From: a virus
DNA length: 64,000 nt
UHGV virus genome: UHGV-0375936
Strand: one strand, 5' to 3'
Shown here: positions 448 to 60,427 of the stretch, in pieces
Layout of the letters: each line of letters starts with the position of its first letter
How positions within the stretch are numbered: position 1 is the stretch's first letter
Program-made: the position numbers and the translations under genes
The notes under the pieces: model-generated
Told to the model about the DNA's origin: nothing
The model's database searches: none
The model's input: the letters and a program-made list of their open reading frames with translations, nothing else

Positions 448-1185
448 TTAATAGCCCTGATAAATGATGTCGTCACGGTCTTTACGTAACTGGCAGTATG
501 TTACGTCAGCACCGTTAGGGATTTGTACGCCAGCGTCTTCAAGATAAATAACACCAGTCTGATTACAGAAATAAAAAGACCACAAGTACGGATTGCCTTG
601 ACAACTGTTTTCACGATGATCGAAGGGCCAATAGCCTCGATACAATTCGTCGTAATCACCGCGCTCGATACCAAAAGCAATCATTTCTTTTTCCCACAAT
701 CTGCTTTCGGCGTCGTAAATCGAAAACCAGAAACCGACGAGGTTCTTTGTCCGTTTAACGTTCATTAAGTCGTTATAAATGGGGAAGAGTGCTTTATTGA
801 AACTTTCTAACATCCCTGGAGAGAGTAGAAAGTTCACGTAATATTCTAGCCATTGATAAACGGCTTCCCAGACATCCTCAGAAGAGAAATGCTCGAATAC
901 GGCGTCATCACAATCGTAGTTATCGAAGACCCCTGAGAGATCTATTATGACGTCGCGAAGGTCAAAGTTTCGGTTGGTATTGACACCCTCAATAACTTCA
1001 GCGATGAGACGAGTAAAGACGTTTGTGCAGGCAGTCTGTGCGGTATAAAAGAATTCTCCTTGTACGGTTGACCACTTTGGGTCCTTCAAATGTTCATTGA
1101 AGTATTGTGGCCAAATTTTATAAAAGATTCCCTCGAACAACGAGGGATTGATACGTTGTAATTGAGGGACATAAACTTTTAGCAT
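448..1185 (-). CDS. hypothetical protein
   Basis: 245-aa ORF, GGAG RBS upstream of ATG, same strand as neighbours. Confidence 0.6.
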   Translation of the reverse strand: MLKVYVPQLQRINPSLFEGIFYKIWPQYFNEHLKDPKWSTVQGEFFYTAQTACTNVFTRLIAEVIEGVNTNRNFDLRDVIIDLSGVFDNYDCDDAVFEHFSSEDVWEAVYQWLEYYVNFLLSPGMLESFNKALFPIYNDLMNVKRTKNLVGFWFSIYDAESRLWEKEMIAFGIERGDYDELYRGYWPFDHRENSCQGNPYLWSFYFCNQTGVIYLEDAGVQIPNGADVTYCQLRKDRDDIIYQGY

Positions 1186-1221
1186 TTTAATAACTCCAAT
1201 GGTGTTACACCTGGATAATAT

Positions 1222-1890
1222 CTATCTAAGAATATTTTTAGCGAAAAAAGGATCGACTATAAACTCCTTCACCTGTGAGTCATAACCCGAATGTATTTGA
1301 TCGCTACTGAGCAAATACCCGTCTAAATCGTGTGGAAGAATCCAAGAATCCCCCTGTTTAAAAATACCATAATCTGTTGTTCCAGAGGAAAAAACGATTT
1401 CCTCTGGAGAGGGATAGATGTGGCGTAAGGCAAGATCAGACGGCTTTAGCACGATTAATCGAACGGGATGTTGACTGACTGCCTCTTTAATAAACTGTTC
1501 ACGATTAAACCAAATTATTTTTTCGGGGTAAGTTTCGAATTCAGCCCATGTCCGCGTGATAACTAATTTGGAAATCTTTCTCAATTCTTCAGAATGCTCT
1601 GCGTAGCCGATACACTCCTTGCGTACTTCATGATTTTCTACCGATGCTGTGAATTTTTGGAATAGGTGTTGTTGGAAAAAGCCGTTCTCCGGGATATCAC
1701 AACCCGCGTTGTATAGTGCAACGATCTCCCACAACAACGAAAGAGAAAACACAAATGCTAACTTTTCCACAACTTCCCAATCTTCGGAGTAAGGGGCTTT
1801 AAAGCCCCAATACTGCCGTGCGTTATACATAAAGTGAGTTTGTAAAAACCGAGGGGCTTTTGACAAGACCTCACTATAAACGATCAGCAT
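1222..1890 (-). CDS. hypothetical protein
   Basis: 222-aa ORF, 7-nt overlap with upstream gene (translational coupling). Confidence 0.6.
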   Translation of the reverse strand: MLIVYSEVLSKAPRFLQTHFMYNARQYWGFKAPYSEDWEVVEKLAFVFSLSLLWEIVALYNAGCDIPENGFFQQHLFQKFTASVENHEVRKECIGYAEHSEELRKISKLVITRTWAEFETYPEKIIWFNREQFIKEAVSQHPVRLIVLKPSDLALRHIYPSPEEIVFSSGTTDYGIFKQGDSWILPHDLDGYLLSSDQIHSGYDSQVKEFIVDPFFAKNILR

Positions 1891-11671: not shown

Positions 11672-11873
11672 TCATATTCTCCTCAGGCTCGAAATGTGAT
11701 TCGGGTGGCAACGTCCCTAAAGCCCCTTGGATACAAGCCGTCAGTGAAGGTTTGCCGAAACAGACCTTACCTATCGTCCCCACATTGGGATGCTGTAAGA
11801 ACGCTTTCGCACGTTCGTATTCTTTCCAACAAATACTCGTATCCAAACCACCCACTCCGTACGATTTTAACAT
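11628..11873 (-). CDS. hypothetical protein
   Basis: 81-aa ORF overlapping the start of the next gene. Confidence 0.4.
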   Translation of the reverse strand: MLKSYGVGGLDTSICWKEYERAKAFLQHPNVGTIGKVCFGKPSLTACIQGALGTLPPESHFEPEENMNVHREPINLRHTVE

Positions 11874-11939
11874 AATTAGCTCTCCTGACGTAAATTTCTC
11901 ACACTCATAGTGAGGTACGCCAAGAGAGCTTTATTGTTT

Positions 11940-12383: not shown

Positions 12384-12414
12384 TTGCAAACCTTAGAGAC
12401 GCAAAAAAGTAAAA

Positions 12415-12543
12415 TTAAAACCAACGCGCGATGACGAAAGCCGCAGCGGCTAATATGGCTGTGGTGATTATCAATCCACCCCATGAAAGTTCCGCGTCGT
12501 ATAGTGCGGATATCGCTACATTCGTAGCGTTTATCGTGGTCAT
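12415..12543 (-). CDS. small hydrophobic peptide (42 aa)
   Basis: ATG with AGGAG RBS 6 nt upstream; MTTINATNVAISALYDAELSWGGLIITTAILAAAAFVIARWF; below ORF-track cutoff. Confidence 0.35.
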   Translation of the reverse strand: MTTINATNVAISALYDAELSWGGLIITTAILAAAAFVIARWF

Positions 12544-12600
12544 TTTCTGCTCCTGTCAATACCCTCACACCGGAGGGTATCTTCTGGACTATTTGGGTGG

Positions 12601-12699
12601 TTAATCTTCGAACGCCCAACGGTGACGTTTAATCAGCCAGTTTAAACCTTTACCAATTAACCACAACGAGCCAAGTGTTAACAGAACCCCTACAACCAT
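12601..12699 (-). CDS. small hydrophobic peptide (32 aa)
   Basis: ATG with AGGAGAGGG RBS; MVVGVLLTLGSLWLIGKGLNWLIKRHRWAFED. Confidence 0.35.
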   Translation of the reverse strand: MVVGVLLTLGSLWLIGKGLNWLIKRHRWAFED

Positions 12700-12709
12700 A
12701 TTCCCTCTC

Positions 12710-12895
12710 CTAATTCCGCCATTCGCATTCGCGTTGACGCCAAATTGAACCCCACGATAGTTTAATCAGATAAGATGAAACTACCCATAAAATCATCACC
12801 ACACAAAACATGACATAAAGAACCGCTAGAATGGACATGAAGCCAAACCCTGCCGCATCCACAATACGACGGAACCAATCAGTTTGCATAAACAA
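12710..12895 (-). CDS. small membrane protein
   Basis: 61-aa ORF with long hydrophobic core; overlaps the stop of the ATPase gene. Confidence 0.4.
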   Translation of the reverse strand: MFMQTDWFRRIVDAAGFGFMSILAVLYVMFCVVMILWVVSSYLIKLSWGSIWRQRECEWRN

Positions 12896-15383
12896 TTTTT
12901 ACTCCTTCGTTATACACCGCAGGCAATGTCACCCCTTCCGGTTCGATGACACAGTACGATGCTTCATTAAGTTTAGAATGAACCTCGGCTTCGTGGGAGA
13001 CTACCAACAGTTGGGAAAATTCTCCCGAGTTTGCTAACGTTTTAATAAAACCGACCAGGTTGTTACGGTGCTCCTCATCCATGCCTTCCGAAGGCTCATC
13101 CAAAAGCAACGGAAACTGATGCAACTTCAGCGCTTTGTACGCAGTCAGCCTGAACATCAGATTAAATATCGCACGCTGCGCCTTAGACCCTTTACGCACG
13201 TCAGGAACAGGCTCAGGATGCGTTTTTAGCTGGACAGGAAAAGTATAATCCAAATCGCCGTCAGTGAGGTCACAAGGCATAACGCGCATGGGGTACGTCC
13301 AGACCTGTTCGATATAACGCGTCATTAACTCTGTGATTCTAACGATAGCGTTGTAAAAATACTTTCTAAGTACACCCTTTTCTGGCGAGAAGGCTTGAAT
13401 CATCAGTTTGTTATTGAACTGCTGGGCTTGTAAGTCAGCAAGTTCGCGTTCCAAACTGTTGAGCTGATTCAATTCATTTTCCATCTGACGATAACGTTCG
13501 CGTGCGGTTGTAAAAGCATCCAGCTTCCCTTCTCGAGCACGTAAGAGTTCCTCGACGACCGTATTTGTCAACGTAACCTTAACATCACTCTCTAACCGTT
13601 CGAATAACGCACTGAAATCATCTACAGCACGTTTAACATTCACCAGATAGGTAAGTGTCGTGTTAGCCAGTTCGTGCTCTCTACGACGCATTGAGAGCAT
13701 CTCTGTGGCTTTACCTAATCGTGACTGTTGAAAAGCAATTTTCTGTTGTAAAGCACCATCGACGTTACCAACGGCCGCTACGGCATCCTGCCATTCTTTT
13801 TCCGCCTTCACTAACCGTTGTCGGGTTTCATGGTACTCAATAGCAGAGTACAACTCACTGTCAAACGCTGCGCATAGACTACCGAACTGTTCACGTGATT
13901 CTGTGAAAACGTTACGTTCTTGCAAACGCTTAAAGAACATGCTCAATACCGGGTCCTTTGAATACGTCAGCACAATCTCACGAACCTGCCGCATATAAGT
14001 TACATCAGATTCTAACTCAACACGATCGCGTAATAGGGCCTCTAACTGCGTTTGCAGTTCCGTGCGCTGCTGCTGTTGTCCACGAATCGAAGACTCAAGT
14101 TCAGGTAAAGAACGTGTAACACCAGGCCGAAACTTAAACCGGCACTGCGGACAATCCACTTCCGCTGTTTCTAAGTAGTGATTACGTTCGTGATTTAAAT
14201 TCTGTAAAACGTTCTCCACTCGCTGGAGTCTATCCCGCAACCCTGCGGTTTTTTGATCCATCACCAGAAGCCGTTCTTCCAAAACATTGAGTTTTTCAGT
14301 TGAATGAATTGCGTCCAGTGTTGTTCCTAACCGTTGCCCCCAAACACGCGCATCGGTAGCCGCACGAAGTTGGTCTAAATTGACGTTGTCGTTAAATAGA
14401 CCCGGAAAGAGATGCTCGGTGTCCCATTTGGTAAGTAACTCACGTAAACGCGCCAATGTATTCTTGAGACCTTCGTGATTCCGCATCAGGTAGTCTTGTC
14501 GTGTTGACTCATCCATCAATAACGACAAGTCTTTATTCAACATCGATACCTCTGTTTCAGTAGACACGACAGCTTCGCGGGCCGTCGCTTCGTTTTGTCG
14601 CGCGACCAGTATCTGTTCATCGGTAGGCAGGCCACCACGATGTTGTAATATTGCGTCGATGGTTGGGCCCAAGCTGTTTAATAACGCTTGGATTGTTTCG
14701 ATGGTGACGGCACGATTTAATCCTGGCAACTGTTCGATTTCTCGGTTCAATTCACGTAAATCCGATTCCAAACCTTTTAATCTCGTCGCTAACTGCTGCC
14801 GTTCTTCCTCGTTCTCAATAACACGCGTCCGTAATTCGGCGATCTTGCGGCTGGTGATTTCAATACCCCCATTTAAGGCAGTAAGGTTTTTACGTAAACG
14901 TTGATAAAACCCTAACGCGTAAGTGAGGTCAGAGGTACTTAAACGGTAAAACCATTTGCGGCGTAATTCGGTTCCCGCATCGGTTAACAACACCTCACCA
15001 TTTAATAGTTCTTTAATCTCTTTCGTAATACCCGTGATTTCTTCAACACGGGAGTTGTAGACTTTCGCATTACCTTGCTCGACGATCTTTGTCCCCGTGG
15101 TCAGGTTCTCAATATCGCAAACCAAAGAGTTGCCTTTACGGGCAACTTTGAATCGATAGCGTTGATCGCCAACTAAACAGTAGTTCGTGTAAGAACCGCC
15201 GTCCCTGAATTCAGTTTTAGCTGGTGCTAAGGGTAAGAACACAGACAGTAGACTGGTTTTCCCGCAGCCGTTCCCACCCAGGATAATTGTTGTCGGAGAC
15301 TGGATAGTGAAATCGAAGGTTTCAATTTCATGTAACCCCATCCCCGTAAAACCTTTGAGTATAATGCGTTCAACTTTTAGCAT
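12879..15383 (-). CDS. SbcC/Rad50/SMC-like ABC-type ATPase with long coiled coil
   Basis: Walker A GGNGCGKTSLL; coiled-coil middle; C-terminal LLLDEPSEGMD...LLVVSHE (Walker B/D-loop/H-loop); start probably ATG 15383 after GGAGG. Confidence 0.7.
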   Translation of the reverse strand: MLKVERIILKGFTGMGLHEIETFDFTIQSPTTIILGGNGCGKTSLLSVFLPLAPAKTEFRDGGSYTNYCLVGDQRYRFKVARKGNSLVCDIENLTTGTKIVEQGNAKVYNSRVEEITGITKEIKELLNGEVLLTDAGTELRRKWFYRLSTSDLTYALGFYQRLRKNLTALNGGIEITSRKIAELRTRVIENEEERQQLATRLKGLESDLRELNREIEQLPGLNRAVTIETIQALLNSLGPTIDAILQHRGGLPTDEQILVARQNEATAREAVVSTETEVSMLNKDLSLLMDESTRQDYLMRNHEGLKNTLARLRELLTKWDTEHLFPGLFNDNVNLDQLRAATDARVWGQRLGTTLDAIHSTEKLNVLEERLLVMDQKTAGLRDRLQRVENVLQNLNHERNHYLETAEVDCPQCRFKFRPGVTRSLPELESSIRGQQQQRTELQTQLEALLRDRVELESDVTYMRQVREIVLTYSKDPVLSMFFKRLQERNVFTESREQFGSLCAAFDSELYSAIEYHETRQRLVKAEKEWQDAVAAVGNVDGALQQKIAFQQSRLGKATEMLSMRRREHELANTTLTYLVNVKRAVDDFSALFERLESDVKVTLTNTVVEELLRAREGKLDAFTTARERYRQMENELNQLNSLERELADLQAQQFNNKLMIQAFSPEKGVLRKYFYNAIVRITELMTRYIEQVWTYPMRVMPCDLTDGDLDYTFPVQLKTHPEPVPDVRKGSKAQRAIFNLMFRLTAYKALKLHQFPLLLDEPSEGMDEEHRNNLVGFIKTLANSGEFSQLLVVSHEAEVHSKLNEASYCVIEPEGVTLPAVYNEGVKIVYAN

Positions 15384-15461
15384 ACCCACCTCCATAAAGA
15401 CGGAGTGTGGTGTAAAAAGAAAAAAATAAAGAAAGGGAGAACCCGAAGGTTCTCCCTAACG

Positions 15462-16070
15462 TTATTTGGTATACAGCTGATAACCCATTGAAGCCCAATA
15501 ATCAATGTTCTTCGCGTTTTCTACCCAAACCTGTCCCGCCTTTGTGGCTAAGACTTCCATTGTCAATGTACAGATCAGATTTGTTACCTGGATACAATTT
15601 CCAGGTGTAACATCATCCAGATAAACCGGATATAAAAACGGCGATTTAATGGATTGGTACGGGTAAGAATAGTGGCTACCGACTTTCCACCCTTCTTCTA
15701 CAGGGCAGAGATTATAAGTGCGTGTTTCAGGAACTGCGTTTTCAGAGATCCAGTTAACAACATCGGCTTTAATTCGATCGTGGTCGATATAGTAGAACAC
15801 AACACGCTGTGGGATACTTGTGGTACCAGCCGGGTCTAAAGCCTCCAACGCCTTAAAAGGCGACGTTAACAATGTTGTACTGTTCTCAAGCGCGTAAACC
15901 AACTTTTCGTAAGCAGTCGGTGTTTTGCGTTTAAAATATTCCCGTAAGCGAGGGTAAGCCAGGAAGCCCTCTACTTCTTCTTCCATTAAGTCAATGAATA
16001 AAGGCGTATGCGAAAACCGCTCTGCATTTTGCATCGCTTCAAGAAAACGAACTAATGTAATTTCGTTCAT
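15462..16070 (-). CDS. hypothetical protein
   Basis: 202-aa ORF. Confidence 0.55.
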   Translation of the reverse strand: MNEITLVRFLEAMQNAERFSHTPLFIDLMEEEVEGFLAYPRLREYFKRKTPTAYEKLVYALENSTTLLTSPFKALEALDPAGTTSIPQRVVFYYIDHDRIKADVVNWISENAVPETRTYNLCPVEEGWKVGSHYSYPYQSIKSPFLYPVYLDDVTPGNCIQVTNLICTLTMEVLATKAGQVWVENAKNIDYWASMGYQLYTK

Positions 16071-16087
16071 CTGGTCTTTCCTTTTAG

Positions 16088-16118
16088 ATCAAAAAAAGAA
16101 GCCCCGAGTAAACGGGGC
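16088..16118 (-). terminator. Rho-independent terminator
   Basis: GCCCCG-AGTAAA-CGGGGC hairpin with adjacent A-run on plus strand. Confidence 0.5.
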
Positions 16119-16126
16119 CGGGCTAA

Positions 16127-16603
16127 TTACAGCCCTAAGTGCGTGAGTGATAAAATAGGTTGTGTTTCACCTTTAATCGTCGCGTAGGAACGATACATTT
16201 CTGCGTTACTTGAAAAAACTTCGTTAGCAACGATACATTCACCCGTCTCTAAAGAAAGGAGATAAATGTAGTCGCTCCATACGCTTTGTACCAATACCCA
16301 CTCAAGTGCGGTATCATTTTCGCGTGTTGTTCGCAGGTGATGAAAGTAAGGACGGATTGCATCAACCGCCGCATTAAAACGACGGTGATAGATTCGGGTT
16401 AAATCAAAGGTCCAGATTGTTTCCAGGTCGACTGGATGTAATGTGCGCACCGTTTCGATAATCGTCGACTGATCGTTAAGGCGCGAGGCTTCGGCGATAC
16501 GTAGCAGTTTCCAGGCTACCGTTAAGTTGTGGCGAATTTGTTCAGGTTTAGCCGACAGGTCATGATGAAATTGCGCAGCTTGGTAAACGTTAGATAATTG
16601 CAT
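16127..16603 (-). CDS. hypothetical protein
   Basis: 158-aa ORF; conserved initiation context CCTAAAGGAGTATTAAAATG. Confidence 0.55.
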   Translation of the reverse strand: MQLSNVYQAAQFHHDLSAKPEQIRHNLTVAWKLLRIAEASRLNDQSTIIETVRTLHPVDLETIWTFDLTRIYHRRFNAAVDAIRPYFHHLRTTRENDTALEWVLVQSVWSDYIYLLSLETGECIVANEVFSSNAEMYRSYATIKGETQPILSLTHLGL

Positions 16604-16631
16604 TTTAATACTCCTTTAGGTAAATATGTCG

Positions 16632-16658
16632 TAAAAAGGACCCCGGACGTACCGGGGC
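16632..16658 (-). terminator. Rho-independent terminator
   Basis: CCCCGG...CCGGGG hairpin with A-run on plus strand. Confidence 0.5.
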
Positions 16659-16669
16659 CAAGACTACAC

Positions 16670-17059
16670 TCAAAGATCTAATTCGATAGCACCAGCCATC
16701 TTGCCCCGTTCTTCTATAACGATCAGATAACGGTCGCGAGATTTGCTTTTAGCGAGAGTTAAGACAACGGTAGGGTCGCACGTTTTCGTGGTGATAGGAA
16801 GAACCTCTCTTGCGACGGAATCGAGCAGAAAGTAATAACCTGCGGGACACATTGTGCCGCCATCAGCTTTTACCAGAATATAGCGCCCGTCTGCGCCGAC
16901 TTCTTGGCAGATTGTTTCACCGACTTCGCAAACTTCAAACCCCGGAGGATTGTACTGGTAATCGGTATTGTTGTTTGGGGTTAGCAGTAAATCGTTAACT
17001 TGAGTAGATGCTGCTACACTCAGGGAGAAGAAGAATGCTAAAACGCAGACGAGACGCAT
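16670..17059 (-). CDS. small secreted protein
   Basis: N-terminal signal-like MRLVCVLAFFFSLSVAAS. Confidence 0.55.
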   Translation of the reverse strand: MRLVCVLAFFFSLSVAASTQVNDLLLTPNNNTDYQYNPPGFEVCEVGETICQEVGADGRYILVKADGGTMCPAGYYFLLDSVAREVLPITTKTCDPTVVLTLAKSKSRDRYLIVIEERGKMAGAIELDL

Positions 17060-17069
17060 GAGTTACTCC

Positions 17070-17480
17070 TTAAATTTTAAGTTTATCCATAGCTACAACG
17101 ATAGGTTTTTCCGAAGTGTCTAATATCCCTACCATTGGCACACCATCTACGACTTCGAAGAATGGTTTGTTATTACCAGAGCATAGACGTTTGTCGTTGT
17201 ATTCGAGACGCTGAGCCTTCCACGTTTCGAGGTTGAGTACGGACATTGGGCTGTCGTAGCACCAGGCACCACCTTGCTCAACGATGAATACGTATCTGCT
17301 ACCTTTGTATTTAAACAGGCTCTTTGCCTGGCAGTACAACCCGTCTATTTCCGTACAATAGAAATCATCGGTGCTATTGACGTACTTAATATTGTCTGGC
17401 AACTGTATTGTCTTTGCTGTAGCGTTGACAGAGAACAGAACAGCCATTGCAATGAGAAGAGTATTAATGATAGTTTTCAT
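17070..17480 (-). CDS. small secreted protein
   Basis: N-terminal signal-like MKTIINTLLIAMAVLFSVNATA. Confidence 0.55.
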   Translation of the reverse strand: MKTIINTLLIAMAVLFSVNATAKTIQLPDNIKYVNSTDDFYCTEIDGLYCQAKSLFKYKGSRYVFIVEQGGAWCYDSPMSVLNLETWKAQRLEYNDKRLCSGNNKPFFEVVDGVPMVGILDTSEKPIVVAMDKLKI

Positions 17481-17491
17481 GATAAAAGTCC

Positions 17492-17977
17492 TTAGTATTT
17501 AGATTGTTCTACGTACTTCTTAACCAGGTAAGCGAATTCGGCAACACCGATATCACCGAACCAAATCAGGTAACCGGGGTCGATGTTGTAGTAATAACCG
17601 ACGAGTTTCTTGGTGTGTGGGTTGTATAGCGTTACGATGTATTCCCAACCACAAGCGTTAGCTTTACAACCGCCACTTTCAATCCAGATTTTGTTGTTGA
17701 TGTTTACCGGATACATGTTACCGCCAGGGCCATCCATGTAACCTTTAGAGCCGAACATACCATCCAGTCCCACAGGGTCTAGTGTTTTATCAACAACGGC
17801 TTTAAACGACTTATCGGTATCGTACAAGTCGTTGATGTTTGGGCACGCATTTGGCTGGCCTTCCCAAGCGTTTCCATCACAGGTAAGCAATTCGTCTACG
17901 GAGGCCGCATCTACAGTTGGCGTGGCACCGATAAACAAGAAAACCAGAAAGAACATCAGTGTATGTAAACGTTTCAT
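17492..17977 (-). CDS. small secreted protein
   Basis: N-terminal signal-like MKRLHTLMFFLVFLFIGATPTVDAA. Confidence 0.55.
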   Translation of the reverse strand: MKRLHTLMFFLVFLFIGATPTVDAASVDELLTCDGNAWEGQPNACPNINDLYDTDKSFKAVVDKTLDPVGLDGMFGSKGYMDGPGGNMYPVNINNKIWIESGGCKANACGWEYIVTLYNPHTKKLVGYYYNIDPGYLIWFGDIGVAEFAYLVKKYVEQSKY

Positions 17978-17995
17978 TGTAACTACTCCTTTAGA

Positions 17996-18388
17996 TTATT
18001 CGGCAGGACGATTTAAGGTAACGCGTCCGATTAATTCAGCGTTGTGAAAGAAGTCCACAGCGGTATAGTTACCAACTGATAGCGGATGGATACTAACTGA
18101 CATTACTTTTGGTTGTTCGCAGGCGATATCCGTCAGGCGTTGGTAGACTTGTGCACGAGTGTCAGCAATGAGTAATCCCGTACACGTTTCACCACGCACT
18201 AAACGATAAACTTGCAGTTTACCGAAACTGCGCATTAACGTAGGCGTCTCATCCGGGTTGATAATCGGTGACTCAGGAGCCGGTTCGTAATAGCGGACAT
18301 CCGAATCACCGAAAGCATAAGTGCCAGTAATTCCGACCGCACAGAAAACAATGATAGTATAAAGTATAGTTCTGATATTCATTTTCAC
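17996..18388 (-). CDS. small secreted protein
   Basis: N-terminal signal-like MKMNIRTILYTIIVFCAVGITGTYA. Confidence 0.55.
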   Translation of the reverse strand: MKMNIRTILYTIIVFCAVGITGTYAFGDSDVRYYEPAPESPIINPDETPTLMRSFGKLQVYRLVRGETCTGLLIADTRAQVYQRLTDIACEQPKVMSVSIHPLSVGNYTAVDFFHNAELIGRVTLNRPAE

Positions 18389-18410
18389 GCACTCTAAAAA
18401 AGATTAATAC

Positions 18411-18872
18411 TTATTTGTTAGGACGGGTGTGTCCACAGTTCTGGAAGAAAGTTTCAGATAAACGATCGCCTTCTACGGTAAAGTTAGCGGCATCGTTACC
18501 ATTGATACTCACACTGAAAGTTTTGGCATTACCGATAGCATTAACGAAAGCAACCCAAGCGTGTTCTGCCTTGTCGCTACCGTCCACGGTAGGGATGTTA
18601 TAGGTTTTGCCGTTTACGACAATATCCATCATGTTATCTTCAGCGTTAGTTGCACCTACGGGTTCCCCGTAATACCAAACCATGCGACCGTAAAATTTGC
18701 GATTCACAGTTTCTGTGTCACAGTTGATAGACAGTCCGTTTCCGGCGGTGTCTTCGATTTCGTAAACTGCCTGGCCAGGGTTTTGTATTTGTTCCCAACT
18801 ATTGATTGCAGCGTATGCGCTATTGAGGCCGAAAGTTAAAATGGTTATTAAGAATGTGATAAAGGTTTTCAT
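18411..18872 (-). CDS. small secreted protein
   Basis: N-terminal signal-like MKTFITFLITILTFGLNSAYA. Confidence 0.55.
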   Translation of the reverse strand: MKTFITFLITILTFGLNSAYAAINSWEQIQNPGQAVYEIEDTAGNGLSINCDTETVNRKFYGRMVWYYGEPVGATNAEDNMMDIVVNGKTYNIPTVDGSDKAEHAWVAFVNAIGNAKTFSVSINGNDAANFTVEGDRLSETFFQNCGHTRPNK

Positions 18873-18918
18873 TGAAATGCTCCTTCGAGTTATGGGGAAG
18901 CTCCCACAAATTATGAAA

Positions 18919-19290
18919 TTAAATAACTGTGTTGGGTAATGCTTTAATCTGTGTATAACTATCTCCGATACCTCTTATCATTTCCAGACGCTCTTCTGTA
19001 GAAAGGCTTTGGTTAATGTCTTTGTCAAGATTGAACAGTGTCAAGAGTTTTGCAATTGCAACCGTCAAGTTGTCGGACAGCTCGTTGTTTTTACGCCATT
19101 CTTCGTTACGGAAAATAGAGATAAGGTCTTTCGCCTGGCCTTCAGCGTGCGGTTTGGCTAACTGCGCGTCACGCTGTTCGATAAGGTATGCTTCGTTAGT
19201 AAGTAAACGTTTCAGGTTTTCTGGGTTAGTGGCAGCGCGAGTAACGATCATTAATACAACAAACGGGTCTTTAAATAATTCGTTTTTCAT
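18919..19290 (-). CDS. hypothetical protein
   Basis: 123-aa ORF directly downstream of a conserved promoter-like element. Confidence 0.55.
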   Translation of the reverse strand: MKNELFKDPFVVLMIVTRAATNPENLKRLLTNEAYLIEQRDAQLAKPHAEGQAKDLISIFRNEEWRKNNELSDNLTVAIAKLLTLFNLDKDINQSLSTEERLEMIRGIGDSYTQIKALPNTVI

Positions 19291-19295
19291 CTTTA

Positions 19296-19373
19296 GTTCT
19301 CCTAAAATGGTTTTCGTTAAGTGAGAGCTTTTGTACTCTCACCTAAGTAATATATATCTGAAATTATTTTTAA
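19296..19373 (-). promoter_or_regulatory. conserved AT-rich box plus 5' hairpin element (copy 1)
   Basis: Near-identical to 55955..56027; minus strand reads TTTCAGATATATATTACTTAGG then hairpin GTGAGAG-TACAAAAGC-CTCTCAC then RBS and ATG. Confidence 0.45.
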
Positions 19374-19383
19374 TATTAACGAA

Positions 19384-19416
19384 CAAAAAAATAAAAGGTG
19401 GGGGTAAACCCCCCAC
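19384..19416 (-). terminator. Rho-independent terminator
   Basis: GGTGGGGG-TAAA-CCCCCACC hairpin with A-run on plus strand. Confidence 0.55.
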
Positions 19417-19421
19417 CGATG

Positions 19422-20000
19422 TTATACATCGAACCGATACTGCCGGGAGTTAATGAGGAATTCGGTATTCAGCTCAATCCATTCGAGTAAATCACCCAAC
19501 GGTAATCGGTTTGGGTTTTCTAACTCAATAGACGCTACCGGATAAGAGTTTACTAATTCCGTAATTGTATCAATACCCTCTTGCGTTCCATCGTCTTCTA
19601 AGGTGATTGTAAACGGCATATCGGTACGATCCGCATTAGGATTGTACAAACTGACTTTTGTTGCTTGGACAAACGCAGACAGGTCGTCACGTATAATGCG
19701 TGTATCAGGCGATAGAACTACCCAGAGATGCTGCCCTGGCTGGAGTTTACGTTTTGCGTAGTTTAAGAAAGGACTTGCCATCAAGTTTTCCAAACCACAA
19801 CAGATGCTACGTAACTGTATTCCGCGCGGATCTCGGTAATCCACATCGAAAATTCCCACAGGTTCATTCGCTGCCTGTTTTATCAGAAAGGCCAATACCG
19901 TGTCCGCTCTTTCTGGTAAGGAAAGCTCTATTCCCTCAAGCTCCCCATCGACGAGATTTTCTAACCAAACGTCTTTTCGCATTTCTATTAATCGGTACAC
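19422..20000 (-). CDS. hypothetical protein
   Basis: 192-aa ORF. Confidence 0.55.
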   Translation of the reverse strand: MYRLIEMRKDVWLENLVDGELEGIELSLPERADTVLAFLIKQAANEPVGIFDVDYRDPRGIQLRSICCGLENLMASPFLNYAKRKLQPGQHLWVVLSPDTRIIRDDLSAFVQATKVSLYNPNADRTDMPFTITLEDDGTQEGIDTITELVNSYPVASIELENPNRLPLGDLLEWIELNTEFLINSRQYRFDV

Positions 20001-20012
20001 GGTTCCACCTCA

Positions 20013-20786
20013 CTAATAATTAAGTTTTACATCGGCAATAAACAGCAATTGTTTACCATGTTGCTGCACTTCTTTCCAACCTAGTTTCATAGCAGCGTCA
20101 ACAACATCTAACATGCTGTAACGGGACATCAAAGATTCTGATTTTGTTCCTGACATTAAGTAAAGTGGCTCATTAGGGCTACGGTCACGTGCGTCAGGAA
20201 GTTCCCGAGAGACTGCTGATCCTTCGGGTACGGTAACAACATGAATCACGGTAAATGGTCTCTTGTGCGTCAGATAGATACGAAACCCAACGTGTTCAGA
20301 TTCATGAAAGACTTTCTTCACAACCACATCTTTTAGTGTCGTCTGAACATCAGCCCCAGGTAATATCGTGGTTTCACGTGAAACGAAACAACGGCTATTT
20401 TCAATCGTGGAGAAATAATTACGTATCGGCAAACTAGCGTTATGATCGCGCAGTTTTTTGCTCAGTAGATCGAAGTTCAGTTCTTTAACTTTCTCTAGCC
20501 ATTCTTTGGCTTGTTGAATGTAATAACTACCGACAGTGCGATAAGTTAATACCTTACCTGTGCTTACTTTCCAAAGTTTAACGCTTAGTGAATTTGGCTT
20601 ATAGCGACGATACTCACCCCGCGTATAGTTGATGCGCTCGTAACGCTCTACATCGTCAACGGGTGCAGATTCGATCGATTGTAATTGCAGCGTACGATCT
20701 AATCTATCGGCGAATAGTAGTGATGTTAGCGGACCTTCGATCAAATACGGTTCGGTTTTAAAGATATCATCTAGATGGATTTTCAT
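20013..20786 (-). CDS. hypothetical protein, tandem paralog family member
   Basis: C-terminus LGWKEVQQHGKQLLFIADV shared with three neighbours; N-terminal LDDIF. Confidence 0.6.
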   Translation of the reverse strand: MKIHLDDIFKTEPYLIEGPLTSLLFADRLDRTLQLQSIESAPVDDVERYERINYTRGEYRRYKPNSLSVKLWKVSTGKVLTYRTVGSYYIQQAKEWLEKVKELNFDLLSKKLRDHNASLPIRNYFSTIENSRCFVSRETTILPGADVQTTLKDVVVKKVFHESEHVGFRIYLTHKRPFTVIHVVTVPEGSAVSRELPDARDRSPNEPLYLMSGTKSESLMSRYSMLDVVDAAMKLGWKEVQQHGKQLLFIADVKLNY

Positions 20787-20853
20787 TTCTATTTCCTTCT
20801 TAACAAAAGCCGCGACTAAAGCGCGGCAGTTAGAGAAAGTCTATTTTTACTTA

Positions 20854-22005
20854 TTAGAGGTCAGCAACAAACAACAGCTGGCAGCCGTACTTTTGTACGT
20901 CCGCCCAACCGTAGTCTTTTCCGATTATAGGTAGATGTAAAATATCCAGCTTCTCGTCTTTCGCTTTTAGTTTCGCCATTAACGCATTGGACTCCTCAGC
21001 ACTGAGGAGTAATGCTGGCTCTTTTTCAGTACGTCCTTCTGCGGTTGGGAAGAAATTGTAATAGCTGCGAGTAGGTAAATCGACAGAAAAACTACGATTG
21101 CCTATTCTGGCGATGAACGCAACTCCTTCACAGTTAGCATCTACACTACACGACCATCCCGCCTCCGTTAAAAGGTCTTTTAACAGACACCACACTTTAA
21201 GTTGGTTCTTAGAAACTGTACGGTAAATAGCAAGATGTTCAGGAAGTAAATGTACGCCCATAACCACGTTTTCAGATTTCTCGTCAAGCAACTCTGGATG
21301 CTGTATCGGGAACAATAATTCACTGATACCCACGTTATCAATTTTGTTAACAAAATCAGTTAATTCATCTTTTAAGGTAGACACTTGATTTTCTCCTTTG
21401 TCTTCAATAATCAGGTGGGGTTCGCCGCTAATTAAAATGTGGTAAACGAGATCGTCAGTAGAACGGTAAGTGAGCTTGATTGCTTTATCACTTAATATTT
21501 CGTAGCGGAAGAAACTTTCGTACCAACTTGAGCCGAAATCGTTTTGTGTAAGCTCCTGCTCAACTTTGATGGTTTTTGCTTCAAAGCCGATTAACTCGCT
21601 TAATAACGCGAGTTCTTGTTTAGTTAAAATAGCTACACCGTGAAAGGGCACTTGTTCAAGCTGAAAACATAACTTAGTGACTTCACCATTTGGGAAGACC
21701 TTAAACATAATCTTCCGGTTGCTACTCTTTTCCCTAACAACGAGTTTACGGTAATTTAGTCCACAATTTGTGTAAGCCGCGAACTGGTAACCTTCAATTT
21801 CTTCATCGGAAGTACAGACATCGACAGGCGCGATAATCTCATCGTATTCACTAAGTACACAGCAGCCCAATTTATAACCAAACAACGTATGTTGTAAAAA
21901 ATAGTCGAGGGTTAAGCTTGGTAGTGGCCAAGCCCGATTATAGCATCTGTCCATCAGTTCTTTTAGGTACTTGGCATGTCTTGGTTTAGAAATAATATTT
22001 CGCAT
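20854..22005 (-). CDS. hypothetical protein, tandem paralog family member
   Basis: C-terminus FFPT...GWADVQKYGCQLLFVADL. Confidence 0.6.
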   Translation of the reverse strand: MRNIISKPRHAKYLKELMDRCYNRAWPLPSLTLDYFLQHTLFGYKLGCCVLSEYDEIIAPVDVCTSDEEIEGYQFAAYTNCGLNYRKLVVREKSSNRKIMFKVFPNGEVTKLCFQLEQVPFHGVAILTKQELALLSELIGFEAKTIKVEQELTQNDFGSSWYESFFRYEILSDKAIKLTYRSTDDLVYHILISGEPHLIIEDKGENQVSTLKDELTDFVNKIDNVGISELLFPIQHPELLDEKSENVVMGVHLLPEHLAIYRTVSKNQLKVWCLLKDLLTEAGWSCSVDANCEGVAFIARIGNRSFSVDLPTRSYYNFFPTAEGRTEKEPALLLSAEESNALMAKLKAKDEKLDILHLPIIGKDYGWADVQKYGCQLLFVADL

Positions 22006-22036
22006 TTTTACTCTCCTTTAGGGGTTTTTTCGTTAC

Positions 22037-22591
22037 TTAAGCAGGGCAAGCTAAGAACAACAACTGCTGACCGATTTTACGTACGGTATACCAACCGTGG
22101 GCTTTAGCGACCGCGATCAACGTTTCCCAGTCATCAACATCACATTGCTCGTTCCGAAGTTTTGTAAAGAGTGCTTCGGCTTCGTCTTGGTTTAATAACT
22201 TACCTGGATTATCAGGGGTGGTGCCAGAAGGGGTTGGAAAGAAATCGTATTGACGCGCTAAGAGAAAATCAACCAGATACTTGGTGTTCTCTTTATAAAC
22301 CAGTGTGGAAGTCTTCCCTTCGTGGAAGAAGCTGCCTGTTTTCCAAACGCTATCTTTCAGTAAGCTCTGAAGGTAATCTGTAAAGCCCGTTCTAAATGGG
22401 ATATGCGTTTTACGCGTGATGTTGCGACGCAGCGGGGTTTCCTCCACAGCTTGTACACTCACCCCTACTATCATCGCACCTGGCTGAATAATGGTATTGG
22501 TCAGTACGGTATAGGGACAGTTAAAGAAATGTTCACCTACACCTTTTTCAAGGGATTGGATAATTTCATTTTTCAGTTTAGTCAGATACAT
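22037..22591 (-). CDS. hypothetical protein, tandem paralog family member
   Basis: C-terminus FFPT...GWYTVRKIGQQLLFLA. Confidence 0.6.
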   Translation of the reverse strand: MYLTKLKNEIIQSLEKGVGEHFFNCPYTVLTNTIIQPGAMIVGVSVQAVEETPLRRNITRKTHIPFRTGFTDYLQSLLKDSVWKTGSFFHEGKTSTLVYKENTKYLVDFLLARQYDFFPTPSGTTPDNPGKLLNQDEAEALFTKLRNEQCDVDDWETLIAVAKAHGWYTVRKIGQQLLFLACPA

Positions 22592-22617
22592 GATATATTC
22601 TCCTTTTAGGTTTTTAC

Positions 22618-23352
22618 TTACGCGGTTTTAATTAGCAGCAGATAGCCCTTCGTAATCTCAGCACAACTCCACCCTTTTACGGCAGCGACACCACGAAGGT
22701 AATTTTCTGTGTGATACTGTAAAAACGGATCGTCTGGATTAATCTCAACTAGGTGAGTGGCTTTAGAAATCGTTTCCGCCTCTGGGATTTGTTTTGTTAA
22801 GCCTGATGCAATCAGTTCAATAACGCGGTATCCCTCTAACCAAGAAACATAGATACGTAAACCGTATAACTTACCGTTATCTTTTAAGGGATAAAGACTG
22901 ATGTCCCGGCCGAGCAACGTTAATTCTACATCAGTGGGAAGGTTTTCTACATGCTTGATTAACCCTACCCCATGTCTAAACAGTGGGAAGTAAGAGTATA
23001 GCGTCAGCATACTGCTTCCTCCAATAAACGTAACATCGGAAACGGTAGGCGTGCTGGCAATGAGGCGAACATGTTCCGCTACGACTTCAAGTTCGGCGTC
23101 ACTGATCAATTTATAGAATAAAATGACGCTGGTTTCGGTATTAAGAACAAAGAAGAACCGGTTGGCGTGACTGCTTATCGTGTATTCGTCAACCATGCTG
23201 TCGATAACGTCACTGTCTGGATAATCTTCGGGTTTAATTGTTTCAGCAGAGACTAACTTAGCAGGTTGGGATTGCCCTATTAGTTCATTAACCACCGTAG
23301 AAGAAAGTTCTAAACTGGTGTTAGTAAAGATATCGTCTAATAATTCTCTCAT
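22618..23352 (-). CDS. hypothetical protein, tandem paralog family member
   Basis: N-terminal LLDDIF and C-terminal KGWSCAEITKGYLLLI related to the three neighbours. Confidence 0.55.
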   Translation of the reverse strand: MRELLDDIFTNTSLELSSTVVNELIGQSQPAKLVSAETIKPEDYPDSDVIDSMVDEYTISSHANRFFFVLNTETSVILFYKLISDAELEVVAEHVRLIASTPTVSDVTFIGGSSMLTLYSYFPLFRHGVGLIKHVENLPTDVELTLLGRDISLYPLKDNGKLYGLRIYVSWLEGYRVIELIASGLTKQIPEAETISKATHLVEINPDDPFLQYHTENYLRGVAAVKGWSCAEITKGYLLLIKTA

Positions 23353-23558
23353 GATTTACTCGCTAATCTCAATAAAGGGGAGTCTATTATTATGGATTGT
23401 AAAAGAGGTATAAGGAAGTCACTACGTTCCTCTGGGAAGAGTATGTCGGTATACTACGTATACCTCCGCTATTTATATCCGTATACATAATGCCCCCTAC
23501 CCCCTACCGGTATCCCGAGTAGCAGAATAAAGGGACATAATGTAATTTTTAGTACCTG

Positions 23559-23639
23559 TTATCGGAAGGTACTAAATGGAGTGTAGTCTTTAAGCCGTTT
23601 GAGCAGCTCATTGAGACTTTCTTTCTTTTTAGTAGACAT
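23559..23639 (-). CDS. candidate 26-aa basic peptide
   Basis: ATG preceded by GGAGAG RBS and by the conserved AT-rich box/hairpin; MSTKKKESLNELLKRLKDYTPFSTFR; below track cutoff. Confidence 0.3.
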   Translation of the reverse strand: MSTKKKESLNELLKRLKDYTPFSTFR

Positions 23640-23691
23640 GATCTGTCTCTCCAAATGGTTTAATCAATCCGTTTCGAATGAAACGTGCTCG

Positions 23692-23747
23692 TAGGGACTG
23701 AACTGGTACTTCAGTCCCTATTCACTTAAGTAAAATATATCTGAAAT
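23692..23747 (-). promoter_or_regulatory. conserved AT-rich box plus hairpin element (variant copy)
   Basis: Minus strand ATTTCAGATATATTTTACTTAAG followed by 10-bp stem hairpin AGGGACTGAA/TTCAGTCCCT. Confidence 0.4.
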
Positions 23748-23772
23748 CAATTCCGATCTAAGGAACGTCCCG

Positions 23773-24738
23773 ATGGAGAAATCCAGTGTTGATTTTTTCT
23801 CAATTGGTATCGTCGCGGAAGACAAACCCCGTGGTACAGATCGGGTAAAAGTGATACCAATTGAAACCAACTTTGCTAACCCTACCGTGGTGCAATCTGT
23901 TTCTTCAGCAACTGAAAAGACGCATGAAACGTCCGGTGCAACAGATAACCTAACCATTAAGACGGGTAACACGATAACCGCAAAGTGGTGGAAGTTTAAC
24001 TCCAACCGAATTAATTCCCCTGACGTTAAACGAGAAGACTACGTTATCTTGTTGCGTTTGGGGAAAACCGATATTTATTTTTGGATTGATCTGAACTTCG
24101 CTAACGTTAAGCGATTAGAAGATGCGGTTTATGCGTGGTCGGCTGACCCTGAAAACCAAATGGCGGATGACTTGTCCAATGCGTATGTGTTGAACGTTTC
24201 GACGATTGACAAACATATCACGCTAAGAACGAGTATGGTGAATGGCGAGAAAGCGGCGTGGTTGTTTCAGTTTGATAATGCAAACGGTACGTGGCAGTGC
24301 GTTGACCATAAAGGAAACAAGTATTACATTAACTCGGTTGAAGATGATCTCGGGTTTGAGAATGCGATGCTTTCAAAAGTGAACATCAACAAAGAAGATG
24401 CGTTCATTTATTCAAAGCGTTCTATTAACCTGGAAACGAAAACGATTAATGAAAAATGTGAAGTCCGCAATACGGAAGCAGCGAATTCCGTTACGTTTAA
24501 AACACAAACCTGGTTAACAGAAGCGGGCAGTTCGACAACGTTTAAAACGCCGAACTTTAAACAAGAAGGGAAGGAAGCGATGTTCACCGGTAATTTGGAA
24601 ATCGCTAAGAACTTCAAATACGGTGGTACGGGTGAAGGCGTGGGTGTCTTTACGGTTAAAGATGCCATTATTTCCGGTATTACCTTTAGCGTTCACATTC
24701 ACCAAGGTAAACATGGCCCGACATCACCTCCACAGTAA
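23773..24738 (+). CDS. hypothetical protein (possibly virion-associated)
   Basis: 321-aa ORF, first gene of the plus-strand structural block. Confidence 0.55.
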   Translation: MEKSSVDFFSIGIVAEDKPRGTDRVKVIPIETNFANPTVVQSVSSATEKTHETSGATDNLTIKTGNTITAKWWKFNSNRINSPDVKREDYVILLRLGKTDIYFWIDLNFANVKRLEDAVYAWSADPENQMADDLSNAYVLNVSTIDKHITLRTSMVNGEKAAWLFQFDNANGTWQCVDHKGNKYYINSVEDDLGFENAMLSKVNINKEDAFIYSKRSINLETKTINEKCEVRNTEAANSVTFKTQTWLTEAGSSTTFKTPNFKQEGKEAMFTGNLEIAKNFKYGGTGEGVGVFTVKDAIISGITFSVHIHQGKHGPTSPPQ

Positions 24739-55440: not shown

Positions 55441-55947
55441 TTAAACGTTGAAGTTAAAACGTACGTCTAAGATATTGGATATAAGATTGAAAAGTTCAAC
55501 TTTGGTAGCTAAACCGGCTCTTAAGTAAACGTCAAAGCTATCCTTACGGAAACTAAATTTAACCGAACTACCTAGCTCCTTTCTGAACTCGTCATAAAGT
55601 TCGTACTTATCGACATCCGTTAAGTCTTTATCGAATTCTACCGTGAAGCGATATTTTTCTTTGGCTTCCATTCCTTTAGTGTAAACCGCACATTTAGCGG
55701 TGGTGGTACCGACGATTTCGCACACCATATTGAACATTTCCTCATCGGTACGTACTGCGGCGGTGTAACCAATATCGATGGAGTCTTTACGGAAACCCAT
55801 GAAGAACAGCGCACCGAAGTGTTTGCGGAAAGCTTTATATAGCGTATCTTTTTCATCTTCGGTTAATACGTAGTCCAGTTCAACAGTAAACTTGTAATCT
55901 TCTTTAGAAACGAATTCTTTAGCATAATCAACTTTAGTGAAGTTCAT
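55441..55947 (-). CDS. hypothetical protein with internal tandem duplication
   Basis: Two about 65-aa halves share KEDYKFTVELDY...FRKDSIDI / KEKYRFTVEFDK...FRKDSFDV. Confidence 0.5.
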   Translation of the reverse strand: MNFTKVDYAKEFVSKEDYKFTVELDYVLTEDEKDTLYKAFRKHFGALFFMGFRKDSIDIGYTAAVRTDEEMFNMVCEIVGTTTAKCAVYTKGMEAKEKYRFTVEFDKDLTDVDKYELYDEFRKELGSSVKFSFRKDSFDVYLRAGLATKVELFNLISNILDVRFNFNV

Positions 55948-55954
55948 GGTATAT

Positions 55955-56027
55955 TCTCCTAAAATGGTTCGTTAAGTGAGAGCTTTTGTACTCTCACCTA
56001 GGTAATATATATCTGAAATTATTTTTA
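55955..56027 (-). promoter_or_regulatory. conserved AT-rich box plus 5' hairpin element (copy 2)
   Basis: Near-identical to 19296..19373 over about 75 bp, including RBS, hairpin and TTTCAGATATATATTACCTAGG. Confidence 0.45.
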
Positions 56028-56309
56028 TTAAAAACCCGCAATAAAACTGCCTAGCGAGACACGCTGTAGGTATTTGGGCTTACGGGCCAGGTAACAGTTC
56101 TTAGGATTACCTATTGCCATCTGCGCAACTGCACGTTCTAAACGCGGTGCTTCTAAGATGGCACGATAGTTCCCTTCGTAATGCATTAACCAAGCACACT
56201 CTTCAACGAAACGTTTTGCTTCGCGATAATCTAACGTACGGATTAACTTCTTGCCCCGGTATTGTTTTACATCGCCGTTTTGACAAAATACAATAGTTTC
56301 ACGATTCAT
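56028..56309 (-). CDS. hypothetical protein
   Basis: ORF with ATG at 56309 after GGGAGA (track extends to GTG at 56330). Confidence 0.45.
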   Translation of the reverse strand: MNRETIVFCQNGDVKQYRGKKLIRTLDYREAKRFVEECAWLMHYEGNYRAILEAPRLERAVAQMAIGNPKNCYLARKPKYLQRVSLGSFIAGF

Positions 56310-60309: not shown

Positions 60310-60339
60310 CTAATCCTCCTTTAGGCTATAACTAATGGA

Positions 60340-60381
60340 GTGAACGTAAATTTCACTCTCTCCTAGGTAATATATATCTGA
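60340..60381 (-). promoter_or_regulatory. conserved AT-rich box plus hairpin element (variant copy)
   Basis: Minus strand TTCTCAGATATATATTACCTAGG followed by hairpin GAGTGAA/TTCACTC. Confidence 0.4.
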
Positions 60382-60427
60382 GAAAAAATATAAAAACCGT
60401 AGGATGGACTAAGTCCATCCTACGGTT
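60381..60427 (-). terminator. Rho-independent terminator
   Basis: Long stem CCGTAGGATGGACT / AGTCCATCCTACGG with A-rich run on plus strand. Confidence 0.55.

Follow-up and report, generated by a model that had tools for sequence, protein, structure and literature searches.

A putative virion RNA polymerase-type early promoter with a predicted start-site hairpin and a recently copied leader in a jumbo phage distantly related to SPN3US

Introduction

Every jumbo phage that encodes its own RNA polymerase (RNAP) is reported to carry a conserved AT-rich motif of ~10 nt near −10 before its early operons, and where it has been tested, namely in phiKZ, AR9, phiR1-37, and 201phi2-1, this motif is the early promoter and has been assigned to the virion RNAP (vRNAP) (PMC7598289; PMC5312081; PMC8244752; PMC11512511). 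The published early-promoter consensus is TATATTAC for phiKZ, TTTRARR_BTATATTACDWHDGTG for 201phi2-1, and TTTCARRYAKATATTATYWAAGTGWA for N1M2 (PMC7058600 Table 2), and that for AR9 is AAATATATATTAT-(6N)-G+1, also given as ATATATATTAT-(6N)-G+1, the starts of phiKZ and phiR1-37 also lying 6 nt past the motif (PMC5312081, PMC7598289). In the present study, we analyzed an element that occurs in two copies 36 kb apart in a stretch of 64,000 nt of the virus genome UHGV-0375936 (hereafter, the window), and that an initial annotation had taken for a promoter with a structured 5′ leader driving two unrelated genes.

In phage N4, the vRNAP is a single-subunit enzyme, and its promoter hairpin, which has a stem of 5–7 bp and specific bases, acts as extruded DNA. 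At the level of RNA, a stem-loop that leaves fewer than ~2–4 unpaired nucleotides at a triphosphorylated 5′ end blocks both RppH and RNase E, the latter at its 5′ sensor. In the review PMC4496689, the N4 promoter hairpins are placed upstream of +1 and have 3-nt loops. T4-type phages carry the promoter-early stem-loop (PeSL), a unit of a terminator stem-loop and an early promoter repeated between small variable genes, within which the junctions of indels and gene swaps lie (PMC2839356, PMC4122927).

From the comparisons described below, the element is probably a complete early-initiation module with a hairpin under selection and a recombined leader, an assessment that weighs the well-supported promoter and leader-shuffling parts against the less certain function of the hairpin. 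What the comparisons add, with support, to the initial annotation is that the promoter is clade-specific and of the vRNAP type, that the start-site hairpin covaries family-wide, and that the identity of the two leaders comes from recent copying.

Results

The two copies of the element, at 19372..19297 (76 nt) and 56027..55954 (74 nt) on the minus strand, were confirmed to be near-identical (96%), the differences being a single substitution (T/C in YTAGG) and an indel of 2 nt (AAAACC vs AACC). The shared stretch, family D3 of a repeat search, extends from its 5′ limit TAAAAATAATTT in an A/T tract through TTTCAGATATATATTAC(T/C)TAGG and an inverted repeat to its 3′ limit, the Shine–Dalgarno (SD) sequence GGAGAA, and the flanks on both sides are unrelated. 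The 22-nt box pattern with ≤3 mismatches gave four matches against 0.00 expected from 100 dinucleotide-preserving shuffles, and the 22-nt hairpin sequence gave two against 0.00 expected from shuffles of the same kind; because the shuffles yielded no match to either, chance was excluded as the origin of the repeat. The repeat is not coding sequence, as the open reading frame (ORF) 56028–56330 stops at its edge, with the stop codon at 56030–56028 overlapping the upstream edge of promoter copy 2. The 123-aa and 168-aa proteins encoded downstream of the copies gave no alignment by BLASTP, as expected of unrelated genes, and in view of this lack of detectable similarity, paralogous genes were ruled out as the cause of the shared upstream region. 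The annotated hairpin was also found, although not with the 7-bp stem ascribed to it: the inverted repeat of copy 1 spans 11 bp with one G·T pair and that of copy 2 spans 10 bp, and the loop is TACAAAAG (8 nt) rather than TACAAAAGC, in which a C had been counted twice.

The AT-rich box ATTAAAAATAATTTCAGATATATATTACYTAGGT-G was not confined to the two sites originally described, where it was indeed present, but also occurs at 60367–60380, 23730–23743, and, as a weak match, 1215–1228, all five occurrences being intergenic, on the minus strand, and before genes of unknown function. The core CAGATATATATTAC is exact at three sites and has one mismatch at the fourth (23730–23743). A motif scan of the window, as had been proposed, returned five sites, four strong and one weak, and a search with a covariance model (CM) built from 35 family members gave exactly five, four at E ≤ 2e-10 and one at E = 0.003. 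Every site lies 23–90 nt upstream of a start codon, and there is no copy of the box in the plus-strand block 26538–41576, which encodes large virion structural proteins. Accordingly, the element does serve both of the genes first assigned to it, but as part of a set of at least four or five transcription units in the window.

The family consensus, gAtTaaAAAtaATTTCAGATATATATTACCTAGGTGAGA, expressed as a position weight matrix (PWM), has an information content of 1.6–2.0 bits per position in its core. The G at the predicted +1 is invariant in 35/35 aligned promoters of the family, and in the first 50 kb of phiKZ, a G occupies the seventh position after TATATTAC in 7/7 sites. Because of this invariant G and the homology with AR9, phiKZ, and phiR1-37, we infer, rather than measure, transcription starts at 19340, 55995, 60360, and 23723. 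An AT-rich core of ~10 nt of the TATATTAC/TATATTAT type was found near −10, in agreement with the published promoters (PMC7058600, PMC5312081), as were multiple intergenic copies co-oriented with hypothetical genes (five in 64 kb) and none before virion genes. The early promoters of phiKZ, 201phi2-1, and AR9 and those predicted for OBP and N1M2 share with the element the TATATTA(C/T) core, the 5′ TTTCAR/TTTRARR segment, the upstream A/T tract, and the G 6 nt downstream, and like it they are intergenic and stand before operons of hypothetical genes, in tens of copies per genome (PMC7058600 Table 2; PMC5312081; PMC7598289). The element differs from them in its longer conserved block (YTAGGT and GAGAG around the start) and in the covarying start-site hairpin. 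Thus, it is very probably an early promoter of a phage polymerase, and the original reading as a promoter with a structured 5′ leader, which the comparative evidence supports (intergenic, co-oriented, multi-copy, conserved, and matching published early promoters), was largely right, if incomplete. As such, the promoter is a new member of a known, experimentally studied class, and its presence in a jumbo phage is nothing unusual.

An ordinary host sigma-70 promoter or regulator operator, duplicated by accident, would also be AT-rich, with TATATT/TATTAC resembling a −10 hexamer, and might include an inverted repeat, as operators do. However, a sigma-70 scan of 18800–24200 gave 9 sites vs 10.5 expected and none at 19341–19374 or 23724–23751, no −35/−10 pair being called at the box, so that a sigma-70 promoter there was ruled out. 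In addition, the ~34 bp conserved across phages of four host genera are far above what sigma-70 needs, and related phages transcribe independently of the host RNAP (PMC7598289, PMC13282480). This explanation is, therefore, highly improbable.

Nucleotide matches of the window were obtained only with jumbo phages of 240–250 kb, and no close relative was found among deposited phages. The window shows ~72% identity to SPN3US-like phages of Salmonella, Escherichia, and Proteus over radical-SAM genes and also matches Erskinevirus phages of Erwinia. Its source phage is phiKZ-like (Chimalliviridae-type) and distantly related both to Salmonella phage SPN3US and to the Erskinevirus group. When a 3-kb query around the copy at 19 kb was used in megablast, the element itself was the only part matched, at intergenic sites of phiEaH2, Stratton, and Asesino, where the same promoter is followed by GAGAG-UUAAUACAAAU-CUCU(U/C), with the same stem and a different loop. 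A more sensitive search with the 100-nt element matched 261 places in 75 records of SPN3US-like and Erwinia jumbo phages, and 39/40 among the matches listed lay under no annotated feature. Furthermore, IMG/VR holds 40 exact copies of the 19-mer CAGATATATATTACYTAGG; these fall in 37 stretches, which belong to contigs of 107–246 kb with the exception of one from a 7.4-kb contig. Among these contigs, 3300029126_000001, with ~96% nucleotide identity to the window, encodes the 123-aa protein at 100% identity. Overall, phages of Salmonella, Erwinia, Cronobacter, and Serratia have ~34 bp in common with hardly a base changed, and the element always has the same orientation and distance before an SD and start codon, with a median leader of 51 nt.

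To characterize the leader, 42 distinct promoters from the window and related loci were collected, and +1..+32 of each was folded. The minimum free energy hairpin begins at the predicted +1 in 32/42 and within 3 nt of it in 40/42, with a mean energy of −6.1 kcal/mol and a mean z of −2.3 for the 42 leaders, stems of −3 to −10 kcal/mol, and loops of 3–11 nt. The stem sequences vary (GAGAGUUAA/UUAACUCUU, GAGAUUAC/GUAAUCUC, GAGCAUUGA/UCAAUGCUU, and UAGGGACUGAA/UUCAGUCCCUA). Because the hairpin lengths also vary, a structural CM alignment was set aside in favor of an alignment-free permutation, in which each 5′ arm was paired with the 3′ region of another promoter; a CM fixed at 8 bp plus a 4-nt loop mis-registers several members, including both copies of the element. 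The native arm pairs averaged −5.81 kcal/mol as compared with −3.38 ± 0.32 for permuted pairs, and 0/2000 permutations were as low. As a conservative check, an ungapped alignment with one fixed geometry showed double-sided changes in 32 cells vs 17.5 ± 3.2 (0/500 shuffles), and its true register exceeded all slid registers. The sense strand folds better than the antisense strand in 31/40 (Wilcoxon p = 4e-4), with 24 vs 10 G·U pairs; this strand bias points to a structure of a single strand, either RNA or non-template DNA, and away from an operator bound by a protein as double-stranded DNA. Arms that covary rather than stay conserved, variable loops, and asymmetric strands are also the opposite of what an operator would show. 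The leader of the 168-aa gene differs between the window and locus L020 at five positions, four in the loop and the fifth changing U·G to U-A, which leaves the stem intact, and this stem is kept in L020, L027, and L017, with the differences mainly in the loop. Taken together, these patterns make it reasonably probable that the hairpin is selected as a structure, rather than as a sequence, on the sense strand and has a function.

At copy 1, the part of the hairpin within the predicted transcript is 19323–19340 (GAGAGU-ACAAAA-GCUCUC, 6 bp including a U·G pair); the leader folds at −12.2 kcal/mol with this hairpin first, and +1..+32 alone folds at −8.3 kcal/mol. A known RNA family was ruled out for the hairpin, as no Rfam match was found: Rfam 15 gave 0 matches in the whole window at gathering thresholds and, at 19250–19450, only chance-level ones (E ≥ 0.1, scores far below gathering).

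Several observations weigh against the view that the hairpin is a structure of the early mRNA made by a vRNAP. When folding was started from −12 and the helix extended outward, the helix ran 1–6 nt into YTAGGT, upstream of the predicted +1, in 15/38 members including both copies, and ended exactly at +1, the commonest end, in only 14/38, so that the statement that the helix always starts exactly at +1 was dropped; the upstream extensions would allow a role at the DNA level or a start site further upstream. The covariation signal is confined to the inner pairs, as the outer 5′ arm (GAGA) is itself conserved as promoter or initially transcribed sequence. Moreover, a change in L040, the closest relative of copy 1, disrupts the A4-U15 pair. 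Over the first 50 kb of phiKZ, a start-site hairpin was found at only 2/7 early promoters, indicating that vRNAPs in general do not need it and that it is clade-specific. Finally, no RNAP subunit genes were found among the 20 larger ORFs of the window scanned against PHROGs. That this phage has a vRNAP is instead presumed because it is related to SPN3US-type phages; jumbo phages of the SPN3US-like and Erskinevirus groups have been reported as vRNAP-encoding members of the phiKZ family (PMC5312081, PMC13282480).

These upstream extensions bear on the possibility that the inverted repeat is a promoter element of the DNA, a hairpin of the non-template strand that is extruded around the start and aids recognition or melting, loosely as in N4. 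The complementarity spans the predicted start in both copies (11 and 10 bp, −6/−5 to +24), and the sense-strand bias would also fit non-template DNA, in which G·T is tolerated. However, extensions of at least 3 nt occurred in ~6 independent leader families vs ~3 expected from composition by a rough estimate, a marginal excess, the commonest helix end is +1, and short AT-rich stems with variable loops are poor candidates for extrusion. N4 and the present case are alike in that early promoters with an inverted repeat go together with a polymerase carried, here presumably, in the virion; the repeat analyzed here, however, lies at or after the predicted +1, with 3–11-nt loops, variable sequence, and an RNA-like G·U bias, in contrast to the N4 hairpins upstream of +1 with their 3-nt loops, and phiKZ early promoters mostly have no such repeat. 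A DNA-level element is thus considered unlikely.

The hairpin could alternatively be a promoter-proximal attenuator or terminator that gives short early RNAs or sets read-through. UUUU follows the stem in many relatives (e.g., AAUCUUUUAC), one such promoter in SPN3US (L034) is followed by a true terminator, and short RNAs derived from 5′ untranslated regions (5′UTRs) by premature termination, which this explanation would fit, have been reported for phiKZ and 201phi2-1 (PMC10914365, PMC11512511). In the window, by contrast, no U-run follows the stem at either copy, at 60360, or at 23723, the stems of the two copies preceding ACUUAACG, and a terminator scan called none at the copy-1 hairpin (19317–19346). 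The stems of the family are also weak, and the U's of the relatives are partly within the stem, paired as G·U. Attenuation is, therefore, a very improbable role.

The origin of the near-identity of the two copies was addressed by alignment with related loci. To either side of a segment of ~450 bp that they lack (Table 1), L011, L003, and L022 are collinear with the window, the homology of L011 running over 8866–18885 at 93.7% and resuming at 19335. In these loci, the next gene comes directly under the control of the same terminator and promoter, via a different hairpin. The insertion is bounded at +6, within the shared promoter/GAGAG sequence, and at the SD of the following gene. Members of the 123-aa gene family in four related contigs have a different leader (GAGCGUUGUAGAAUUACACGCU...), which has only ...AAAGATG in common with copy 1; one of these contigs is the closest to the window, and the member there is a second paralogue. 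The leader GAGAGUACAAAAGCUCUCACUUAACGAA(AA)CCAUUUUAGGAG is, on the other hand, that of the 168-aa (MNFT...) gene in four related contigs. Other members of the promoter family share only the promoter and GAGAG, whereas copies 1 and 2 share the entire leader. By these alignments, copy 1 is a recent chimera in which a copied leader of the 168-aa gene is joined at the SD to a paralogue of the 123-aa gene; recent recombination, and not a shared regulatory need, would thus account for the identity of the copies beyond the promoter. The evidence for shuffling is one documented event.

Because copy 1 is at the edge of this insertion, the repeat was also considered as a selfish or neutral duplicated fragment, for example a scar of recombination or a miniature mobile element, that does not contribute to expression. 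Its fixed orientation and distance before an SD and start codon, the conservation of the core across genera, the lack of terminal inverted repeats or target duplications, and the fact that copies differ outside the promoter, save for this one pair, make this the least credible of the explanations considered.

The arrangement resembles the PeSL of T4-type phages in that a terminator directly precedes an early promoter between variable genes, at copy 1, at the 60380 copy (by eye), in phiEaH2, and in Asesino, and in that the left junction of the insertion, a single event, is inside the promoter/GAGAG sequence. It differs in having a vRNAP-type promoter rather than the host sigma-70 early promoter of T4, in a right junction at the SD rather than at a second PeSL, and in the extra hairpin downstream of the start, nor is the phage T4-like. 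We therefore regard the element as analogous to PeSL but outside the PeSL family.

With regard to the 168-aa gene, a search of IMG/VR for relatives of its protein by peptide patterns returned none, whereas copies of the gene were seen in L007, L020, and L027 by the promoter scan. The protein has a weak, sub-threshold Pfam match to an NTF2-fold immunity family (Imm-NTF2). The 3′ half of the gene (55441–55730, minus strand), which includes two internal KY(K/R)FTV… repeats, is diverged: blastn matches of L007, L020, and L027 cover the 5′ part from ~55724–55766 upward, and those of L007 and L020 resume below ~55400. The promoter and leader of this gene are 96–100% conserved in L007.

The coordinates of the features are collected in Table 1.

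Table 1. Features of the five promoter sites in the window and of the inserted segment.
Feature	Coordinates	Strand	Basis
Intrinsic-terminator-like stem-loop GGTGGGGGG-TTTA-CCCCCACC with T-run (8 pairs, 7 G-C)	19397..19417	−	Terminator scan
Promoter copy 1, A/T tract and core ATTAAAAATAATTTCAGATATATATTAC, then TTAGGT	19341..19374	−	CM 71.3 bits, E = 2.4e-16; PWM consensus
Predicted start of copy 1, G (7th nt after TTAC)	19340	−	Homology with AR9, phiKZ, and phiR1-37
Predicted hairpin of copy 1, TTAGGTGAGAG / loop TACAAAAG / CTCTCACTTAA	19317..19346	−	Folding; helix extension 6 nt upstream of +1
SD TAGGAGA (19298–19304) and ATG (19288–19290) of the 123-aa gene (18919–19290)	19288..19304	−	Repeat ends at 19297
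Promoter copy 2, AATAAAAATAATTTCAGATATATATTAC, then CTAGGT	55996..56029	−	CM 73 bits, E = 9e-17
Predicted start of copy 2, G	55995	−	As for copy 1
Predicted hairpin of copy 2, TAGGTGAGAG / TACAAAAG / CTCTCACTTA (transcribed part 55978–55995)	55973..56000	−	Folding
SD AGGAG (55956–55960) and ATG (55945–55947) of the 168-aa gene (55441–55947)	55945..55960	−	Sequence
Third site, promoter CTCAGATATATATTACCTAGGA, predicted start G at 60360, hairpin GAGUGAA/UUCACUC	60327..60388	−	50.7 bits, E = 4.5e-11
Fourth site TTTCAGATATATTTTACTTAAGT, predicted start G at 23723, 11-bp hairpin UAGGGACUGAA/UUCAGUCCCUA at +4..+32	23690..23751	−	48.1 bits, E = 2e-10
Fifth candidate (weak) TTAGATAGATATTATCCAGGT-G, 23-nt leader, before the 245-aa gene (448–1185)	1176..1236	−	20 bits, E = 0.003
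Segment absent from L011, L003, and L022 (leader from +7, 123-aa gene, spacer to next SD)	18886..19334	−	Alignment

The terminator at 19397..19417 ends the upstream operon directly before promoter copy 1 and is conserved in L011, L003, and L040. The third site is upstream of a 283-aa gene (59458–60309), with a terminator-like stem and T-run seen by eye just upstream. The fifth candidate has three core mismatches and no significant leader fold. The leader of the fourth site (23353–23723) is unusually long and structured (−29.3 kcal/mol, z = −4.6): the promoter at 23730–23743 is followed by the strong 11-bp hairpin, a second hairpin, a 26-aa ORF (ATG at 23639, end at 23559), and ~200 nt with only ORFs of ≤32 aa before a 244-aa ORF starting at 23352.

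Among the relatives, SPN3US (IMGVR_UViG_2706795514_000001, L034 8431–8520) has an early-type promoter and hairpin followed by a terminator, GGCTACCTTCGGGTAGCC with a T-run, and no ORF between, which could represent a short early non-coding RNA. In L006, L009, L015, L016, L031, L033, L035, and L037–L039 (IMG/VR), a block (T)TGAC(C/T)ATCAAGGA(A/G), distinct from the hairpin, spans the SD region of many leaders, and SPN3US-type leaders have CTAATCGAC(C/T)AT in its place.

A second upstream motif, (A)TTTACCTAAAGGAG(T/C)ATTAAA, was found directly before the ATG of three minus-strand genes (16604–16647, 52918–52961, and 58113–58156; repeat family D5). A G/C-rich run precedes 2/3 copies, and the CTAAAGGAGTATT context also occurs in SPN3US-type leaders; the motif may mark either a second class of promoter or a conserved context for ribosome binding. 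Elsewhere in the window, two tandem ORFs of ~132 aa on the plus strand (41641–42448) end in long Cys/Gly/Ser/Thr repeats (…CSGGCSGCSGTCGGACSGRCSTGCSGACSGGCSG), and directly downstream, at 43716–45945 on the same strand, are two radical-SAM enzymes (Pfam PF04055) that are also conserved in SPN3US, a layout reminiscent of a peptide precursor beside its modifying enzymes.

Discussion

In the module proposed here, a promoter of ~34 bp would consist of the A/T tract and the core TTTCAGATATATATTAC, a type assigned in the literature to a virion-packaged multisubunit RNAP. As in the phages studied, the injected vRNAP would recognize the A/T tract and the TATATATTAC core and would start at the invariant G (19340, 55995) of the initiation region YTAGGT-G; the polymerase used, the exact start site, and the early timing are all inferred. 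The first ~20 nt of the nascent RNA are predicted, with covariation and strand bias as indications, to fold into a stem-loop in which the conserved, initially transcribed GAGAG forms the 5′ arm; the mRNA would thus begin with or inside the hairpin. An unstructured linker of ~25 nt would then present the strong SD, giving a leader of ~50 nt. This promoter–leader unit would also be a portable recombination cassette.

As to the role of the hairpin, it might shield the 5′ end of early mRNAs from 5′-end-dependent decay by RppH and RNase E. The layout is like that of the ompA-type 5′ stem-loops of Escherichia coli mRNAs, with a short stem-loop, zero to few unpaired 5′ nucleotides, a single-stranded linker, and a ribosome-binding site, a likeness that depends on the predicted start, with 0–3 unpaired nucleotides predicted in 40/42; it differs in that conserved promoter or initially transcribed sequence also makes up the 5′ arm. 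Stabilization of the 5′ end is put forward tentatively, as a possible role, and it counts against it that the argument comes solely from textbook knowledge of 5′-terminal stem-loops. A role in promoter escape of the vRNAP would be our second choice after such protection.

For the SPN3US/Erskinevirus branch as a whole, we can suggest, with some reserve, that an obligatory stem-loop selected for its structure stands at the vRNAP start, that it acts in promoter escape or in the fate of early mRNAs (protection from decay or handling of transcripts in the early-infection vesicle), and that the unit serves as a gene-shuffling cassette. No description of a start-site hairpin at jumbo-phage early promoters was found in the literature searched, which is not proof that it is undescribed. 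The clade-wide covarying hairpin and the promoter–leader unit as a recombination junction would go beyond that literature, both drawing on sequence statistics and one comparative event and depending on the predicted start.

The present analysis provides a map of early transcription units for an uncharacterized jumbo phage and a definition of a ~34-bp promoter that can be applied throughout the SPN3US-like and Erwinia jumbo phages, among them several candidates for phage therapy or biocontrol. The start-site hairpin is a simple design rule that separates the SPN3US/Erskinevirus branch from phiKZ. The latter phage is known to use a protein to inhibit the RNA degradosome. If true, a 5′ shield acting in cis would give the enterobacterial branch an alternative answer to the same problem. 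Furthermore, the insertion at copy 1 indicates that conserved promoter–leader units can act as recombination handles, which may help to explain the poor synteny of early genes.

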